The translations under genes were made by a program, and so were the position numbers. This document shows, in pieces, positions 32,799 through 39,360 of a stretch of 64,000 bases of DNA (the stretch's first letter is position 1; every line of letters begins with the position of its first letter). This DNA comes from a bacterium (lineage in GTDB: Bacteria; SZUA-182; DTGQ01), in assembly GCA_040755755.1 (NCBI GenBank), contig JBFLZW010000002.1, positions 66,397 through 130,396 on the forward strand, read 5' to 3'. The notes beneath the pieces are model-generated. The model was given only the letters and a program-made list of their open reading frames with translations, did not search any database and had not been told where the DNA came from.

Positions 32799-33560
32799 GT
32801 GAGTTACCAAGTAATTGAAATCACAAATGAATATAATACCATTGAACAGCTTGGAACAAAGGCAAAATTCTGGTTTTATGATAAAAGCGATAACACCACA
32901 AAATCATTTAAAATTGGCAGACCTGGCACTGGAGAAAATTGGGCGGAAAAAGTTGCGTGTGAGTTAGCAAAGCTCCTGAATTTACCGTGTGCCGAGTATG
33001 AATTTGCAATCTGGAAAGGAAAAGAAGGTGTAATATCGCCATGCTTTGTTCCTCCAGATGGCAGACTTGTTCATGGGAATGAAATACTGGCGAAACTCAT
33101 TGAAAGTTATCCTAAAAAGGAACTTTATAAGGTTCATGAATACCAGCTTTCAACAGTTTTGGAGGTTATAAGTAGGGAAATACCTAATTTGCCATTAGGT
33201 TATGAAAGAGGTACAATAATTCAGAAGCCATTGGAACTTTTCGTAGGCTATTTAATGTTTGATTGTTGGATTTCCAACCCTGATCGTCACCATGAAAACT
33301 GGGGATCGGTACTTGATAATACAAGTAAAAAAATGCACCTTGCACCGACATACGATCATGCATCAGGATTGGGATGCAGAGTATCTGATACCGAAAGAAC
33401 AAAAAGACTAACTACCAAAGATACAAGGTATAATATAGAAGCGTTTGTTAGAAAAGCAAAATCTGCTTTTTACGATAAAAACTCGATACAGTTAGATACA
33501 ATCGAAGCATTTACTTATGCTGCCAAGCAAAATAGAAGGGCAGCGAACTTCATGCATTAA
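32799..33560 (+). CDS. HipA C-terminal-like Ser/Thr kinase domain protein (HipT-like, 253 aa)
   Basis: WISNPDRHHENWG matches the HipA catalytic motif (IGNTDAHAKNFS). AEKVACELAKLLNLPCAEYEF matches the HipA helix region. The segment is AT-rich. Confidence 0.55.
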   Translation: MSYQVIEITNEYNTIEQLGTKAKFWFYDKSDNTTKSFKIGRPGTGENWAEKVACELAKLLNLPCAEYEFAIWKGKEGVISPCFVPPDGRLVHGNEILAKLIESYPKKELYKVHEYQLSTVLEVISREIPNLPLGYERGTIIQKPLELFVGYLMFDCWISNPDRHHENWGSVLDNTSKKMHLAPTYDHASGLGCRVSDTERTKRLTTKDTRYNIEAFVRKAKSAFYDKNSIQLDTIEAFTYAAKQNRRAANFMH

Positions 33561-33645: not shown

Positions 33646-34434
33646 ATGGACATGACTACCGTACTTATCTTAGCCTGGCAAAACCCGCATAATCGTGGAT
33701 GGGTGCCTGTCGGAAGATTGCAGTATAAGGGTACTCGATACATCTTCCAATATACCATTGGCGCAAAACAAGCAAAAGACTTCGTGCCATTTAACCTGAT
33801 GACTGATTTAGCCAGTTCATACGAGTCAGAAGAGTTGTTTCCGATTTTTCAGAATAGGCTGCTCTCGAAATCGAGGCCGGAATATAATGACTACCTAAAT
33901 TGGCTCAGCCTGGAAAAAGATACAATTTCCCCTTTCGAAGAGCTCGCCAGGACAGGAGGAATCAGAGCCACTGATTCCCTCCAATTGTTTCCGATTCCCG
34001 AAGAGAGAAATGGAAAGTATGAAGTCATATTTTTCGCTCATGGGATCAGTCACTTGGCACCTGGCTATATTGAAAAGGTTAATCAGCTCAGTCAGGGAAC
34101 GAAGCTCTATGTAATGAGAGATATTCAAAACGAATTTGCCCCTTATGCACTTACCTTGAGAACCGGTGACACCCGGGAAATCGCAGGTTACTGTCCAAGA
34201 TTTTTTACCCGGGATTTCGGGAGGCTGATTGATATTAACGGCGCAGAAAATGTGGAAGTTACCGTTGTTAAGGTTAATGTAAACTCACCATTACAATTTA
34301 AGCTGCTCTGTAAGTTGAGCACATCCTGGCCAAGTAAATTTGTCCCTTTTGCGGATGAAATCTTTCAGCCCATCATAGACAGAGAAGACATACAAAAACC
34401 GGCAAAGGCCAAAGGCATCGACATCAAACCATGA
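33646..34434 (+). CDS. HipA N-terminal-domain-like protein (HipS-like N-region plus a ~150-aa extension)
   Basis: LILAWQNPHNRGWVPVGRLQY...FQY and LFPIFQNRLLSKSRPEY resemble HipA N-terminus (VTWMNNQRVGEL...FKY and VFNFFDNLLPDSPIVRDRI). ATGA overlap with the next gene. Confidence 0.4.
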   Translation: MDMTTVLILAWQNPHNRGWVPVGRLQYKGTRYIFQYTIGAKQAKDFVPFNLMTDLASSYESEELFPIFQNRLLSKSRPEYNDYLNWLSLEKDTISPFEELARTGGIRATDSLQLFPIPEERNGKYEVIFFAHGISHLAPGYIEKVNQLSQGTKLYVMRDIQNEFAPYALTLRTGDTREIAGYCPRFFTRDFGRLIDINGAENVEVTVVKVNVNSPLQFKLLCKLSTSWPSKFVPFADEIFQPIIDREDIQKPAKAKGIDIKP

Positions 34435-36974
34435 TCTCAGAAAAACCTCTACCTCAGACAGATCTATTCCAGTCCCTGCCGGAAGAGGCACGGAATCAAC
34501 TGAAGAGCTTCTTTACCCTCAAAAAATTTCAGGCGGGTGATGTGATCATCCGTCAGGGGAGCAGGGAGACTCAGTATTTCTATATCGTTGCATCTGGACT
34601 GGTGGAGCTTTTCGTTGATGAGGAGGATGGCTCCCGGATTCATCTGGCCTCCATAGGCCCTGGTGATTACTTTGGCGAGCGGGCACTGCTGGTGGAGGAG
34701 GACAGCTCCTGCAACGTCGTTGCCCGTGAGGATACGGAGGTCTATGTCCTCACCAGGGAGCATTTTTATCAGTTTCTGACCGCCCATCCTGAATTGAGCC
34801 GTCACTTCGTCTGGACCTTTACCCAGCGCCTTCACAGAACCAACCTGCTCCTTGAGGAAAAGGAATACAAGGAGGCCATGATCGACCTCCTTTCCGAAGA
34901 GTACAAACCGTACACCGAAGCCATTTTTATTGCCAGAAGCCGCGCCATGCGGCCGGTGCTTGAAGGTATCAGGCGGGCGGCCAGTAATTCTTCGCCTGTC
35001 CTGATCGAGGGTGAATACGGGTCCGGCAAGCAACTTTTGGCCCGCCAGATTCATGCCAAAACGGCGCGATGGAGGAAAGCCTTTATCCTGGTGGACTGCG
35101 GTGCACTGATGGAGGAGGAAAACCGGGAAGAAAGTCTCTTTGGCCGGGAGCATGGCCAGCCGTTTCACCTTTCGGAGCATGCCTTTGGGTATCTTGAGCT
35201 GGCTGAGGGCGGAACCCTGTTCCTGAAAAATATCGATCAGCTTTCTCTTGAGGTCCAGCAGCGGATCCGGGAAGTAGTTGAAACCGGGTCTTACACCCGG
35301 CTTGGGTCAACGCAGGTCCGGAAGGCTGACTTTCGGCTCATAGCCAGCACCCGCGCGAACTTACGTGAAAAGGCCGCAGCGGGGGAATTTGATTCCAGGC
35401 TCTACGGGCTTTTGAGCGCCAATCATATCCAGTTGCCCCCCTTGCGAGAGCGCAAGAACGCTATCCCCAAGCTGGTCGATTACTTTATCAAAAAATATGC
35501 CAGACTGGTCAATAAAAACGTTACCGGCGCTACGCCGGAAGCCATGCAGGCACTCCTGAAGCATGATTATAAGCTTGGCAATATCAAGGAGCTCGAACAG
35601 ATCATCGAGCGTGCCGTTGCGCTGCCGAGCGATGATAAAATCTGGCCGCGACATCTTTTCCTTGGGGCTCCGGCTGTCAGGCCGGATAGCTGGTATTTTA
35701 ACCTTTTGAAAATCAAGCCCTTTGGCCGATGGGTGATGAATAAGATCTATCCGGACAAGCTTCAGTATGCAACTGCAACCTTCTTTATGCTCCTGATTCT
35801 TCTCTGCTTTCTGGGACCGGCGAGCGCAGCACGCAACCCTGCCGCTTTTCTGGTCTGGCGGGTCTGGTGGCCGATGATGTTCCTGTCATTTTTCTGGGTT
35901 GGCCGCACCTGGTGCTCTATCTGCGCCTATGCGGCTTTTGGCCGCAAGTTTCAAAAGCTCAAGCAGTATCAGCTTCCTGTTCCCGCATTTATCCGGGACC
36001 ATGATGCCCTTCTGGTAACCCTGGCCTTTCTGACCATTCTCTGGGCTGAAGAGATCACCCACATGCGCTCCTCACCCAGGGCCACGGGTTGGCTGATGGT
36101 CACCATGCTGTCTCTGGCTATGGTCAGTGCGGTCATTTTCCGGCGGGAGAGCTGGTGTCGATACTTGTGCCCTATGGGCGGGCTGATCGGGGTCTGCTCC
36201 ATGAGCTCCATTATTGAGCTGCGCTCTGATACCACGCTCTGCGCAAACCAGTGCAAGGGGGCCGAGTGCTATAACGGGACCCCGGAAAACCCCGGCTGTC
36301 CTCTCTTTCAGCACCTGCTCTTTGTTGATAACAATCAGAATTGCAAATTATGTTTGCAGTGCATCAGAAACTGCCCCAACCATTCGGCATCCCTGAACCT
36401 TCGTCTGCCGGGGCGTGAAATATGGCTTTCCAATCAGGTTCGTGACAAAATGTCATTCTTTGTCTGTGCCCTGCTTGGATCCCTTGTGCCGGTCATTTAC
36501 CTTGAAGCCAGGAACATTACTCTGCAGGGGGGAAGGGTGAAAGCGCTCTACACCCTGGCCCATTTCCTGCTCCCGGTTATTGTAGCCGCAATACTGTATA
36601 TTCCCGGCCTGCTCAGTTCTCCCGGAACAAAATCCCTCAATTGGCTTCGCTTCTGGCATACCTCGTATGCCTATGTTCCCCTGGCCCTGGCAGCTCACCT
36701 TGCCCACCAGATGCAGTTTGTTCCCGGCGGAGAATATTTCCAATACCTCATCCGGTCAAGGGCTGGTGGAATAATCCAGGGGCCAATTGTTCAACCGCTC
36801 CAGACAATGGCTCTGATTTCGGGATTGTTATTTTCCTGGTTTTGCCTGTGGCAGATCTACCAGCATCGACGGCAGAAGAAAACCTTCGAGGCGCAATGGT
36901 GTTTCTGGCTGGGGCATGCTTTTTTGATGAGTCTTTATGCAGCTATGGTATTTCATCTGATGGTTTTTCGGTAG
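34431..36974 (+). CDS. Multidomain fusion: cNMP-binding domain, then a sigma54-interaction-type AAA+ domain with degenerate GAFTGA and no HTH, then a NapH/RdxA-like membrane polyferredoxin
   Basis: cNMP pocket GDYFGERALL. Walker A GEYGSGKQLLARQIH. ESLFGREHGQPF sits where ESLFGHEKGAFTGA is expected. More than 8 TM helices carry WCSICAYAAFG, SWCRYLCPMGG and CKLCLQCIRNCP (CxxCxxCxxxCP). Confidence 0.65.
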   Translation: MISEKPLPQTDLFQSLPEEARNQLKSFFTLKKFQAGDVIIRQGSRETQYFYIVASGLVELFVDEEDGSRIHLASIGPGDYFGERALLVEEDSSCNVVAREDTEVYVLTREHFYQFLTAHPELSRHFVWTFTQRLHRTNLLLEEKEYKEAMIDLLSEEYKPYTEAIFIARSRAMRPVLEGIRRAASNSSPVLIEGEYGSGKQLLARQIHAKTARWRKAFILVDCGALMEEENREESLFGREHGQPFHLSEHAFGYLELAEGGTLFLKNIDQLSLEVQQRIREVVETGSYTRLGSTQVRKADFRLIASTRANLREKAAAGEFDSRLYGLLSANHIQLPPLRERKNAIPKLVDYFIKKYARLVNKNVTGATPEAMQALLKHDYKLGNIKELEQIIERAVALPSDDKIWPRHLFLGAPAVRPDSWYFNLLKIKPFGRWVMNKIYPDKLQYATATFFMLLILLCFLGPASAARNPAAFLVWRVWWPMMFLSFFWVGRTWCSICAYAAFGRKFQKLKQYQLPVPAFIRDHDALLVTLAFLTILWAEEITHMRSSPRATGWLMVTMLSLAMVSAVIFRRESWCRYLCPMGGLIGVCSMSSIIELRSDTTLCANQCKGAECYNGTPENPGCPLFQHLLFVDNNQNCKLCLQCIRNCPNHSASLNLRLPGREIWLSNQVRDKMSFFVCALLGSLVPVIYLEARNITLQGGRVKALYTLAHFLLPVIVAAILYIPGLLSSPGTKSLNWLRFWHTSYAYVPLALAAHLAHQMQFVPGGEYFQYLIRSRAGGIIQGPIVQPLQTMALISGLLFSWFCLWQIYQHRRQKKTFEAQWCFWLGHAFLMSLYAAMVFHLMVFR

Positions 36975-37295: not shown

Positions 37296-37349
37296 GTGCC
37301 ATTCGATTTAAACGCCATTCAAGATAAAAAGAAGGGAGGCTTTTTGAGC

Positions 37350-38123
37350 ATGTCTGACAGTATTGACTATACAATTTACGGCGATGATATGCAGCTTGTC
37401 GAGATTGAATTAGATCCTGCTGAGGGAGTGAGAGCTGAAGCAGGGGCCATGATGTATATGGACGAAGGAATTGAGATGCAGACCTCTACCGGTGGCGGCG
37501 TATTTAAAGGACTCAAACGGATGATCACCGGAGAGAGTTTTTTTATCACCAGCTTCCTGAACAGTGGGAGAGGCAAGGCACACGTTGCCTTTGGTGCTCC
37601 CTATCCGGGGAAAATAATCCCTCTCGAATTGGATAAACTGGGAGGCAAATTCATTTGCCAGAAAGACGCTTTCCTGTGTGCAGCCCAGGGGATTGAAATT
37701 GAAATTGCTTTTACCAAAAAGATCGGTGCAGGGCTCTTTGGCGGCGAGGGGTTTATCCTGCAGCGGCTCGAAGGTGACGGCATGGCTTTTGCTCATGCAG
37801 GAGGAACGATTATCAGACGGGAGCTTCGAGAGAACGAGGTACTGCGGGTAGATACCGGCTGTCTGGTAGCCTTTTCCCCCTCGGTGGATTACGATATCCA
37901 ATTTGTTGGAGGATTCAAGAACGCTCTTTTTGGCGGGGAAGGGATATTCCTGGCCAGGATGACCGGCCCAGGGCTCGTTTACCTGCAAAGCCTTCCCTTT
38001 TCACGCCTTGCGGATCGCATTTATGCAGCCTCCCGCTTTCAGCAAAGAGATGAGCGAAAAGGCATTGCCGGTATTGGTGGTGGTGTGTTGGGTGGAATCC
38101 TGGGAGGAGACCGCTCTTTTTAG
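37350..38123 (+). CDS. AIM24-family (DUF124) protein
   Basis: Gly-rich beta-rich pattern (GEGFILQRLEGDGMAF...GGEGIFLARMTGPG). RBS gaagggagg. Confidence 0.6.
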   Translation: MSDSIDYTIYGDDMQLVEIELDPAEGVRAEAGAMMYMDEGIEMQTSTGGGVFKGLKRMITGESFFITSFLNSGRGKAHVAFGAPYPGKIIPLELDKLGGKFICQKDAFLCAAQGIEIEIAFTKKIGAGLFGGEGFILQRLEGDGMAFAHAGGTIIRRELRENEVLRVDTGCLVAFSPSVDYDIQFVGGFKNALFGGEGIFLARMTGPGLVYLQSLPFSRLADRIYAASRFQQRDERKGIAGIGGGVLGGILGGDRSF

Positions 38124-38193: not shown

Positions 38194-38580
38194 ATGCAGG
38201 TAGTTACTGCCGCGGTTATTGAAAAAGGTGGTAAGCTCCTGATTGCTCGAAGGAGGAAAGGGGACCACCTGGAAAATAAGTGGGAATTTCCTGGAGGCAA
38301 ATTAGAGCGGGGAGAAACTCCGGAGCAATGCCTGAGAAGAGAGCTGTTCGAAGAGTTTGGCATTGAGACGAGGATCGGAGACTTTATCTGCTCAAGCAGA
38401 TTTGTGTACAGCCACATCTCCATCGAGTTATTGGCTTACCGGGCAGAGCATCTCTCCGGAGAGTTTACCGTGCATGAACATGAAGAAATACGATGGGTAT
38501 GGCCACGCGAACTTGAAGCTTATGATTTTGCCGATGCGGATATTCCTATCGTTAAGAAATTGGTGCAGGGTTGCCCATAG
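38194..38580 (+). CDS. NUDIX hydrolase (MutT-like)
   Basis: Nudix box GGKLERGETPEQCLRRELFEEFGI. Confidence 0.85.
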   Translation: MQVVTAAVIEKGGKLLIARRRKGDHLENKWEFPGGKLERGETPEQCLRRELFEEFGIETRIGDFICSSRFVYSHISIELLAYRAEHLSGEFTVHEHEEIRWVWPRELEAYDFADADIPIVKKLVQGCP

Positions 38581-38700: not shown

Positions 38701-39360
38701 ATGACCTGGGATGACTTTTTGGATAACCGGCATGGGAGCGGCTTTGGGATTCAGAAAAGAGAGGCAATTTCGAAATACCCGCTCCTCTCCAAAGAGGCTC
38801 TTTCCTCTCGAGATTACCGTTTTTTTGAGGATTGCTTCCCCAATAAGGAAAAGTGGCGGTTATTCGATGAATTTAAAGGTCATGTGGCCTACCTGGACAT
38901 TGAAACCACAGGTTTATCCCCCTGGGAGGGCTCCATAACCGTCATAGGTTTGTACGATGGAGAACAAGCGAAAACCTTCGTTCAGGGAGACAATCTTCAG
39001 GCGTTTACTGATGAAATAGAACGATACAAAATGATAGTCACCTTTAATGGGGCGCGGTTTGATATACCATTTATCAAACAATCCCTCAACGCGCGACTGG
39101 ACCAGATCAATATTGATCTCATGTACCCTTTAAAGCGGCTTGGCTATTCAGGAGGCTTAAAAGCAATTGAGCAAACGCTTGGCATCTTTCGCCCGATTGA
39201 GATTGGAAATATAGATGGTCTTGAGGCTGTGAGGCTTTGGTTTGAATATCACAGAAAGGGTAATCAAAGAGCACTGGAAAGGCTCATAAAATATAATCTT
39301 GAGGATACAAGAAACCTCAAGGGGTTAATGGAACTGGTTTACGAGAGGCTCAAAGAGTGA
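38701..39360 (+). CDS. RNase H-like superfamily 3'-5' exonuclease (YprB-like)
   Basis: AYLDIETTGL DEDD-like motif and FNGARFDIPF. Confidence 0.6.
   Translation: MTWDDFLDNRHGSGFGIQKREAISKYPLLSKEALSSRDYRFFEDCFPNKEKWRLFDEFKGHVAYLDIETTGLSPWEGSITVIGLYDGEQAKTFVQGDNLQAFTDEIERYKMIVTFNGARFDIPFIKQSLNARLDQINIDLMYPLKRLGYSGGLKAIEQTLGIFRPIEIGNIDGLEAVRLWFEYHRKGNQRALERLIKYNLEDTRNLKGLMELVYERLKE

Follow-up and report, generated by a model that had tools for sequence, protein, structure and literature searches.

Bacterial enhancer-binding proteins (bEBPs) of the NtrC1, PspF and ZraR type place an N-terminal sensor, a helical linker and an AAA+ domain plus lid ahead of a helix-turn-helix (HTH_8), and carry a GAFTGA loop that contacts sigma-54, a Walker B Asp-Glu pair, Arg fingers and a sensor I Asn in addition to the P-loop Lys and the sensor II Arg residues. 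In some homologues the GAFTGA loop is defective; for TyrR, DhaR, HupR and VpsR, annotation as sigma-54 activators is a routine mistake (Francke et al., PMC3162934). Another set of proteins, NapH/MauN, NosR/NirI and RdhC (PceC), shares a membrane module of four transmembrane (TM) helices, and two of its members, NosR and RdhC, were initially taken to regulate transcription, whereas the present view is that they transfer electrons (PMC5928378). Here we describe a gene that unites a bEBP-type AAA+ domain with a membrane module of this second kind. It lies on the + strand of a 64,000-nucleotide stretch of bacterial DNA (the window; contig JBFLZW010000002.1, positions 66,397 to 130,396, assembly GCA_040755755.1, GTDB lineage SZUA-182; DTGQ01), and exactly the same protein is found in GenBank as MEW6378302.1 under the name 'MAG: sigma 54-interacting transcriptional regulator [bacterium]'.

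The AAA+ domain of this protein has kept the fold of a bEBP motor and has lost, as has its family, the residues for ATP hydrolysis and sigma-54 contact. We favor, at a probability of roughly 45%, a reading drawn from sequence and from analogy to described proteins in which the gene product would be a sensor-regulated membrane iron-sulfur (Fe-S) redox protein, with an exapted pseudo-ATPase serving as coupler or scaffold, and not a transcription factor. Each of the domain families involved is known, so that what is new is their combination and the state of the AAA+ domain; a literature search for the architecture, by words and by Pfam identifiers, found no description of it.

Domain architecture of the fusion protein

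The open reading frame (ORF) comprises four parts, namely a sensor of the cyclic nucleotide monophosphate (cNMP) type, a bEBP-type AAA+ domain, a NapH-like four-TM/Fe-S module and a five-helix extension, which are laid out with their connecting segments as follows.

34431..36974, + strand: whole gene, encoding the 847-aa sensor, pseudo-AAA+ and membrane Fe-S fusion protein; ATG start, single intact ORF
34521..34784, + strand: cNMP-binding-type (CAP/PKG-like) beta-barrel sensor, residues 31-118 (Pfam PF00027; PDB sequence matches; beta-barrel in the AlphaFold2 (AF2) model)
34788..34916, + strand: long continuous helix, residues 120-162, joining the sensor to the AAA+ domain (AF2 model; extent of the Foldseek alignment)
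34929..35657, + strand: bEBP-type AAA+ domain plus lid, residues 167-409, catalytically degenerate (Pfam PF00158, PF25601; Foldseek)
35658..35765, + strand: AAA-to-membrane junction (FLGAPA...FNLL.IKPF...YP), conserved and of equal length in all clades
35766..36221, + strand: NapH/NosR/RdhC-type four-helix membrane module with two cytoplasm-facing Cys motifs (hydropathy; AF2; hhalign)
36222..36410, + strand: predicted cytoplasmic di-cluster ferredoxin domain with two 4-Cys motifs
36411..36971, + strand: C-terminal extension of about five helices and a beta-hairpin, about 190 aa (AF2 predicted local distance difference test (pLDDT) about 80-96; P750 and Q791 conserved)

Pfam matches fall along the protein, with cNMP_binding at residues 31-118 (E=8.4e-25, 87 bits against a cut-off of 27.5), Sigma54_activat (PF00158) at 167-333 (E=3.8e-38), AAA_lid_14 (PF25601) at 339-409 (E=2.9e-16) and Fer4_5 at 552-585 (E=1.9e-5, 25 bits against a cut-off of 22). 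Unlike the canonical bEBPs retrieved in the homology search, for all of which HTH_8 (PF02954) is listed, the 847-aa protein has no Pfam match to this family at E<=0.01, and its C-terminus is a membrane domain. Hydropathy and the AF2 model accord on the layout, which runs from a beta-barrel sensor through the helix at 120-162 to an alpha/beta AAA+ core plus lid, and then through four TM helices and a small Cys-rich domain (598-660) to five helices with a beta-hairpin. The full-length model has a pLDDT of 82, and the membrane half modeled alone reaches a pLDDT of 87 and a predicted TM-score (pTM) of 0.88. GC content is even along the whole gene. The best Foldseek match is inactive-state NtrC1 (1ny5), with 282 aligned columns as compared with about 246 for AAA+-only structures.

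The gene had been singled out in a sequence-only reading as a three-part fusion of cNMP-binding, sigma-54-type AAA+ and membrane Fe-S domains, an architecture that Pfam, hydropathy and AF2 all bear out. The ORF position was correct and the quoted strings GDYFGERALL, GEYGSGKQ, GQPFHL in place of GAFTGA, and CKLCLQCIRNCP are all present. That reading had also noted the replaced GAFTGA motif and the missing Fis-type helix-turn-helix, both of which hold in the alignment and in the absence of PF02954; the losses extend beyond what it listed, to Walker B (FLDE to FLKN), the Arg fingers, sensor I (ATN to STR) and the phosphate-clamping Arg of the sensor.

The AAA+ domain is a predicted pseudo-ATPase

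The sequence-only reading had proposed a structural comparison of the AAA+ part with NtrC1, and the agreement is close: Foldseek superposes the modeled domain on active-state NtrC1 (1ny6_A) with a TM-score of 0.92, a root-mean-square deviation of 2.5 A and 37% identity. We compared the AAA+ motifs by pairwise alignment to Aquifex NtrC-family structures and compiled column statistics for 110 fusion-family domains and 101 canonical bEBP domains, which together locate the following segments.

35010..35033, + strand: Walker A / P-loop GEYGSGKQ (canonical GESGTGKE), GxxGxGK retained
35154..35171, + strand: GQPFHL at the position of the sigma-54-contacting GAFTGA loop (alignment and column statistics)
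35217..35231, + strand: degenerate Walker B LFLKN (canonical LFLDE; alignment and column statistics)
35388..35414, + strand: arginine-finger segment FDSRLYGLL (canonical FREDLYYRL), both Arg positions lost (alignment and column statistics)
35436..35456, + strand: sensor II segment PPLRERK, retained (canonical PPLRER; column statistics)
Sensor I: STR in the fusion protein, ATN in the canonical domains (alignment to Aquifex NtrC-family structures)

The fusion protein thus shares with NtrC1, PspF and ZraR the order of its N-terminal parts, the P-loop Lys and the sensor II Arg residues, but it lacks GAFTGA, the Walker B Asp-Glu pair, the Arg fingers, the sensor I Asn and HTH_8. These losses characterize the family. 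The G-A-F columns of GAFTGA, invariant in 101/101 canonical bEBPs, are variable or deleted across the fusion proteins. The Walker B Asp, likewise present in 101/101 canonical domains, is replaced mostly by K (34), R (23), E (21), Q (8) or H (5) among the 110 fusion domains, whereas the neighboring Glu, again 101/101 in canonical domains, has become N in 56, H in 27, D in 7 and G in 7 and remains E in 6. At the two Arg-finger columns, where canonical domains have R in 100/101 and 101/101, the fusion proteins carry D/S/N/H and L/A/I, with R in 7. Other sites are largely retained: the P-loop Lys is kept in 95/110 fusion proteins and the sensor II Arg residues in 93-103/110. The pattern is most extreme in the cyanobacterial genome copies, in which Walker B reads NN in 53/55, and the GAFTGA loop together with the first Arg-finger position is deleted in 54/55. 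None of the 25 NCBIfam bEBP models listed for the protein comes near its cut-off, with the best, RtcR, scoring 180.6 bits against 650, and NifA and PspF also among the best.

Because the Walker B Asp-Glu pair and both Arg-finger positions are missing family-wide, the protein is predicted to be one that cannot hydrolyze ATP by the AAA+ mechanism, and the same motif losses indicate that it cannot engage sigma-54; at most, the pseudo-AAA+ domain may possibly bind nucleotide. Electron transfer gated by ATP hydrolysis, one form of the ATP gating put forward in the sequence-only reading, does not survive these losses. The distribution of sigma-54 points the same way. Neither sigma-54 nor any of its activators turned up in the 29 cyanobacterial genomes that Francke et al. 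surveyed (PMC3162934), the Arthrospira genome paper reports no sigma-54-type factor in cyanobacteria (PMC2853384), and a 2025 survey found rpoN in only two cyanobacterial strains (PMC12316311). Loss of GAFTGA, the Walker B pair and the Arg fingers, in a family found mainly in a phylum almost without sigma-54, argues that the protein is not a sigma-54 activator. TyrR, DhaR, HupR, VpsR and NtrX offer a precedent, as they share a Sigma54_activat-type AAA+ domain with a defective GAFTGA loop and have been misfiled as sigma-54 activators (PMC3162934). However, those proteins are soluble DNA-binding transcription factors, while the fusion protein is membrane-integral, has no DNA-binding domain and has lost the hydrolysis residues too.

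The membrane half is a distant relative of NapH, NosR and RdhC

The polytopic Fe-S domain that stands at the C-terminus, a further difference from NtrC1, PspF and ZraR, begins with TM helices placed by AF2 at residues 439-461, 470-486, 525-542 and 549-569. Two Cys motifs accompany the four helices.

35913..35927, + strand: first Cys motif, C495-SI-C498-A (CX2C); Pro in place of Ala in most relatives, Cys in 78/78 genome copies
36156..36173, + strand: second Cys motif, C576-RYL-C580-P (canonical CX3CP, within the Fer4_5 match), 78/78

In the ferredoxin domain that follows, the first cluster motif is atypical (C604-x3-C608-x4-C613-x9-C623-P) and the second is canonical (C638-xx-C641-xx-C644-xxx-C648-P). 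All eight Cys of this domain, and with them all 12 Cys of the membrane half, are invariant in the 78/78 genome copies. The sequence-only reading had described WCxxxCP-type and CxxCxxCxxxCP motifs. This description suits the second membrane motif, which is CX3CP as defined in PMC5928378, and the second cluster motif, but not the first of either pair, which are CX2C-A and Cx3Cx4Cx9CP.

The Fe-S domain is most simply placed in the cytoplasm by sequence and by analogy, because it follows an even number (four) of TM helices downstream of the cytoplasmic AAA+ domain, is Lys/Arg-rich (8 in the loop) and is accompanied by no twin-arginine motif. NapH also carries its clusters on the cytoplasmic side (PMC5449189). 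A periplasmic Fe-S domain exported by the twin-arginine translocation (Tat) pathway was considered and rejected, as there is no twin-arginine motif, R572 alone being conserved, and the TM number after the cytoplasmic N-terminus is even.

A family profile aligned by hhalign with a NapH/MauN-type protein (P0144) at 98.4% probability (E=6.5e-15) over residues 488-655, a stretch that spans both Cys motifs, TM3-4 and the ferredoxin domain. Individual models score far lower, with the NapH/MauN model TIGR02163 at 27.4 bits against a cut-off of 213, the NapH equivalog NF007013 at 26.1 bits against 234 and the NosR model NF046105 at 15.8 bits against 1000; the CcoG model TIGR02745 had no match at E<=1, and FixG_C had none. 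On sequence grounds we regard the membrane core as a distant homologue of the NapH/NosR/RdhC module and not as a NapH, which keeps the 'NapH-like' label of the sequence-only reading at the level of a superfamily and adds the C-terminal domain of about 190 aa, which NapH lacks. This extension also occurs in standalone relatives, and it matches no Pfam or NCBIfam family and no PDB structure by Foldseek.

The comparison with each described system runs along similar lines. NapH/MauN shares the predicted four-TM module, the cytoplasm-facing Cys motifs and the subsequent cytoplasmic domain with two 4-Cys [4Fe-4S]-type motifs, but the fusion protein has CX2C instead of CX3CP as its first motif, an atypical spacing in its first cluster motif, the five-helix C-terminal domain and a 410-aa N-terminal signaling region, and no nap genes, including napG, adjoin it in the window or in 88 related loci. 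NosR/NirI and RdhC (PceC) share the membrane module, the possession of an extra N-terminal domain and a history as 'transcriptional regulators' (PMC5928378); the extra domain of NosR and RdhC is a periplasmic FMN-binding domain, whereas that of the fusion protein is a cytoplasmic sensor plus pseudo-AAA+ domain. CcoG/FixG/RdxA (YccM) likewise belongs to the Fer4_5 membrane proteins; it has two [4Fe-4S] clusters as well as metal sites formed by Cys pairs, and occurs widely outside cbb3 operons. The fusion protein, however, lacks the TIGR02745 match, the Ig-like periplasmic domain and the ccoGHIS context, there being no cco genes near it in the window or in the 88 related loci.

The sensor domain keeps the fold but not the phosphate clamp

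Sequence matches of the sensor domain in the PDB are to PKG, PKA-R and CRP, so the fold named in the sequence-only reading, a clear CAP-type cNMP-binding domain, is not in doubt. Its ligand is another matter.

34662..34724, + strand: phosphate-binding cassette equivalent GDYFGERALLVEEDSSCNVVA; Glu kept, phosphate-clamping Arg replaced by Ser92 (PKG alignment)

In the cassette alignment 'FGERALLyDEPRTAs' of PKG stands over 'FGERALLvEEDSSCn' of the fusion protein, such that Glu83 is present but the PRTA of PKG has become DSSC. Among relatives this column holds R in 29/118 ('GEPRSA' type), S in 18 and A in 17, and the Arg is absent from the protein's own clade and from the cyanobacterial members that aligned. 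Because the clamping Arg is Ser92, canonical cAMP or cGMP binding by this protein appears doubtful, and its ligand is probably not cAMP or cGMP bound in the canonical manner; for the minority of family members with the Arg, canonical binding appears likely. Other members carry GAF domains instead of the cNMP domain (P0015-19).

A large family with exchangeable sensors

The size of the family was established with an exhaustive HMMER search, in which the membrane half alone was queried against 1.84 billion cluster representatives. It returned 1567 representative matches, 889 of them at E<=1e-10 and 320 at E<=1e-30, most being 800-1000 aa long with the membrane-half match at the C-terminus. The architecture called unusual in the sequence-only reading is therefore unusual relative to the literature but abundant in nature, many cultured Nostocales and other cyanobacteria included. 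An earlier picture of a rare family of about 20-30 proteins, obtained with word-index searches, was an index artefact overturned by the HMMER search and a genome scan; with a Nostoc member as the query, one word-index search brought up 2050 proteins (E<=1e-20), each under an automatic name.

The scan of GTDB species-representative genomes, whose counts are lower bounds, yielded no fewer than 270 confirmed relatives. Cyanobacteria account for about 55 of the best 80 loci, among them those of cultured Nostoc, Scytonema, Fischerella, Xenococcus, Leptolyngbya and Microcoleus strains, and the remainder come from Thermodesulfobacteriota, Nitrospirota, Ca. Scalindua, Armatimonadota and others; the clade of the fusion protein itself was not among the 80 loci returned. 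In at least 78 further species-representative genomes (55 cyanobacterial, 23 other) the full fusion is one uninterrupted ORF of about 830-930 aa. A Thermodesulfobacteriota metagenome-assembled genome (JBDLJI010000055.1) carries two paralogous full-length fusion genes in the same orientation, for proteins of 928 and 929 aa, separated by about 2 kb (L009:1174-3960 and L009:6020-8809).

The pattern of domain combinations is informative. Among fetched proteins with the membrane module, 83 have the cNMP, AAA+ and membrane parts, 49 have AAA+ and membrane parts with GAF-type or truncated N-termini, two join a cNMP domain to the membrane module without AAA+ (P0124, 621 aa, L008:6001-7866; P0209, 628 aa), and 55 consist of the membrane module alone. 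Whether the parts exist separately elsewhere, as the sequence-only reading had asked, thus has a two-sided answer, in that apparently complete standalone membrane modules of about 435-465 aa occur and the fusion itself is widespread. While the N-terminal sensor is swapped among relatives (cNMP-type, GAF or none), the AAA-to-TM1 junction stays conserved: from cyanobacteria to Desulfobacterota the segment between the AAA lid and TM1 is free of indels and retains N424-L425-L426, R432, S437 and P441. This conservation supports a single origin of the fusion, as judged from sequence.

One homologue, P0363 from Richelia, bears the legacy name of slr1529 of Synechocystis sp. PCC 6803 ('nitrogen assimilation regulatory protein', ntrX), a candidate member of the family. 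In published work slr1529 is repressed to 0.29x by 3 uM Cu (PMC4182526), declines when Fe is limiting, alongside a co-regulated antisense RNA (PMC3516471), and, when knocked out, leaves altered metabolites at 72 h (PMC5318462).

Genomic neighborhood

The neighbors of the gene differ wholly between homologues, and it behaves as a self-contained unit. In the window a HipA_C-like ORF (32799-33560, +; Pfam 9.7e-7, under the cut-off) and a HIRAN-domain ORF (33646-34434, +; 2.4e-8) lie upstream, the stop of the latter overlapping the ATG of the fusion gene by 4 nt (ATGA), in a patch at 32-34 kb where GC falls to 0.443. Since neither gene stands beside the fusion gene in any of the 88 related loci, the pair would seem to be an insertion particular to this lineage, possibly mobile or toxin-antitoxin-like, and no operon partner. 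Downstream are an AIM24-family gene (37296-38123, +; 5e-77), a NUDIX hydrolase (38194-38580, +) and an RNase_H_2/PolB-exonuclease-like gene (38701-39360, +), which are unrelated to the fusion gene and not conserved beside it elsewhere.

Other loci show a variety of surroundings. In cyanobacterial loci L064, L066, L069 and L083 (also L036 and L055) the gene directly preceding on the same strand, at 13-238 bp, encodes a GT4-family glycosyltransferase; in the closest relatives (L001:15957-17117, L002:17442-18446) such a gene is found 5-7 kb downstream, past two ABC exporters and a small cytochrome c; the glycosyltransferase and the exporters are mildly recurrent, clade-specific or distant, and neither occurs in the window. 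The gene of the closest relative (P0002, 81% identical; L001:748-7827) is immediately downstream of a haem/sirohaem biosynthesis cluster that comprises, by Pfam, siroheme synthase, a cytochrome c assembly protein, glutamyl-tRNA reductase, porphobilinogen deaminase, a TP_methylase/HEM4 fusion and ALAD, and that was not found at the window or at L002. Upstream of the cNMP-membrane protein P0124 (L008) are a CNNM fragment and a gene for a CBS-domain protein. Flanking the GAF variant P0017 (L004:5164-11545) on the same strand are a GAF-PAS hybrid histidine kinase (852 aa) and a single-domain response regulator, with a cytochrome c554-type gene upstream on the opposite strand.

Two standalone modules also have distinctive surroundings. 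P0130 (436 aa) overlaps the start of a gene for a 203-aa HATPase_c_2 (anti-sigma-factor-kinase-like) protein on two independent metagenome contigs (L005:442-2360, L006:660-2578). P0136 (466 aa; L007:5376-8486) has a cupredoxin/COX2-like gene on one side and, on the other, a cupredoxin-COX2-cytochrome c gene whose start directly adjoins the P0136 stop, with a PCYCGC-motif protein encoded upstream, a context of the copper or oxidase-biogenesis type that is reminiscent of CcoG.

Proposed function and alternatives

In the sensor-regulated redox protein that we favor, the bEBP route of signaling would be kept, such that the AAA+ domain receives the state of the N-terminal sensor by way of the long linker helix. 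That domain would no longer remodel sigma-54 but would act as a non-hydrolyzing oligomerization or conformational coupler, possibly still binding nucleotide, and would set the membrane Fe-S module in a given state of assembly or conformation, or serve as its scaffold. The membrane module would be the effector, since GAF variants, direct cNMP-membrane fusions and standalone membrane modules exist, and it may pass electrons between an acceptor on the cytoplasmic side and either the quinone pool or a partner in the membrane or periplasm. By analogy to NapH, NosR and CcoG, the reaction could be quinol oxidation or the reduction of a metal ion or partner protein. The 12 invariant Cys, the conserved junction, the self-contained nature of the gene and the precedent of NosR and RdhC also favor this reading.

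Several observations weigh against this reading. The pTM of the full-length AF2 model is 0.59, making the inter-domain geometry unreliable, and Foldseek against the PDB found no solved structure resembling the membrane half. In 39/55 cyanobacterial members the P-loop Gly before the Lys is Glu, which disfavors nucleotide binding there. Clustering of all ORFs from the 88 loci revealed no family conserved beside the gene, and thus no partner that would give a clue to donor, acceptor or substrate. The direction of signaling, whether from sensor to membrane or the reverse, is suggested by domain order and sensor swapping only. Finally, in BLAST comparisons the AAA+ domain of the fusion protein scores higher with canonical bEBPs than with cyanobacterial members, a result biased by a canonical set made up of that protein's own best matches; we judged the single-origin question by conservation of the junction instead of by this nearest-neighbor comparison.

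The main alternative, a reversed flow of information from membrane to cytoplasm, is possible though on balance unlikely. The Fe-S/Cys module would then sense the redox state of the quinone pool, O2/NO or a metal, with the N-terminal domain as a second input and the pseudo-AAA+ domain as an output that binds or sequesters a soluble transcription factor or enzyme. Fe-S clusters are common sensors, the protein has no recognizable catalytic output domain besides the Fe-S module, and retention of the AAA+ fold despite lost catalysis suggests selection for a surface or scaffold function; the two-component genes around P0017 and the overlap of P0130 with an anti-sigma-type gene would also fit. Yet an obligatory AAA+ output is hard to reconcile with membrane modules that stand alone or are fused to a cNMP domain directly, the L1/GAFTGA surface loops through which bEBPs contact their partners are variable or deleted, the 88 loci offer no conserved partner gene, and the re-reading of NosR and RdhC from regulators to electron carriers is a cautionary precedent. 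A narrower version of the redox-protein reading, in which the protein is a regulated CcoG-like cupric or ferric reductase or metal handler whose Cys pairs bind metal and whose two [4Fe-4S] clusters reduce it, strikes us as distinctly improbable. It draws on CcoG itself, a Cu(II)-reducing membrane protein of the Fer4_5 type that has two [4Fe-4S] clusters, two Cu sites and homologues widespread without cbb3 oxidase (PMC7558416), on the cupredoxin/COX2-like and PCYCGC genes around P0136, and on the small cytochrome c and ABC exporters near the close relatives at L001 and L002, together with the haem-biosynthesis cluster preceding the former. The repression of slr1529 by Cu would add to it if that candidate belongs to the family. 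The copper-related context, however, is a single locus at 28% identity, the Ig-like C-terminal domain is missing, and only the distant P0139 (E=0.01), not the fusion protein, matches TIGR02745.

The deposited name implies a genuine sigma-54 activator, here one anchored in the membrane and lacking a DNA-binding domain, which we consider very improbable. The strong Sigma54_activat match, the ranking of RtcR, NifA and PspF as best NCBIfam models and the NtrC1 fold are what such a name would lean on, but those models score far under their cut-offs, the residues for sigma-54 contact and hydrolysis are gone, the family reaches its greatest abundance in the cyanobacteria, a phylum lacking sigma-54, and homologues with a defective GAFTGA loop are considered independent of sigma-54 (PMC3162934). 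The sequence-only reading had also raised the worry of an artefact, either a chimeric assembly or two or three genes joined by a frameshift. The odd domain combination alone would speak for this, and it is more improbable still and is refuted by the conservation of the fusion ORF across genomes: it is continuous in the 78 or more species-representative genomes noted above, some of them complete or close to it, with records of 4.7 to 9.4 Mb (AP018268, AP018288, CP178543, OY969415), with a conserved, indel-free junction, and GC is uniform along the gene.

Implications

Databases show this family only under misleading automatic names. Many entries, some of them from model-adjacent cyanobacteria, read 'sigma 54-interacting transcriptional regulator', 'nitrogen assimilation regulatory protein' or 'AAA family ATPase', and the sequence evidence contradicts each of these names. 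A bEBP motor domain of more than 240 residues, near-identical in fold and stripped of its hydrolysis and sigma-54-contact residues, is joined through a conserved junction to a membrane protein. If it acts as a coupler, this pseudo-enzyme would represent a fate not described for the bEBP AAA+ clade. It is abundant in a phylum almost without sigma-54, and the finding as a whole would surprise specialists in bEBPs and AAA+ proteins.

More tentatively, and with less confidence than we attach to the redox-protein reading as a whole, the family may form a large class, new to the literature and with this protein as its first example, of ligand-gated membrane redox proteins in which a dead bEBP AAA+ ring acts as an assembly switch over a NapH-like Fe-S module. 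If that were true, the AAA+ switch would gate an electron path that links quinone pool and cytoplasm, or else a site of metal reduction. As the family occurs in many Nostocales and commonly in other cyanobacteria, sulfate reducers, Nitrospirota and anammox bacteria, it would then supply a missing regulated branch of the electron-transport or metal-homeostasis networks of these organisms. NapH-, NosR-, RdhC- and CcoG-type modules are poorly understood handlers of electrons and metals for which we found no solved structure, and the built-in, swappable sensors of the fusion proteins would offer a handle on both the function and the control of such modules in genetically tractable cyanobacteria.

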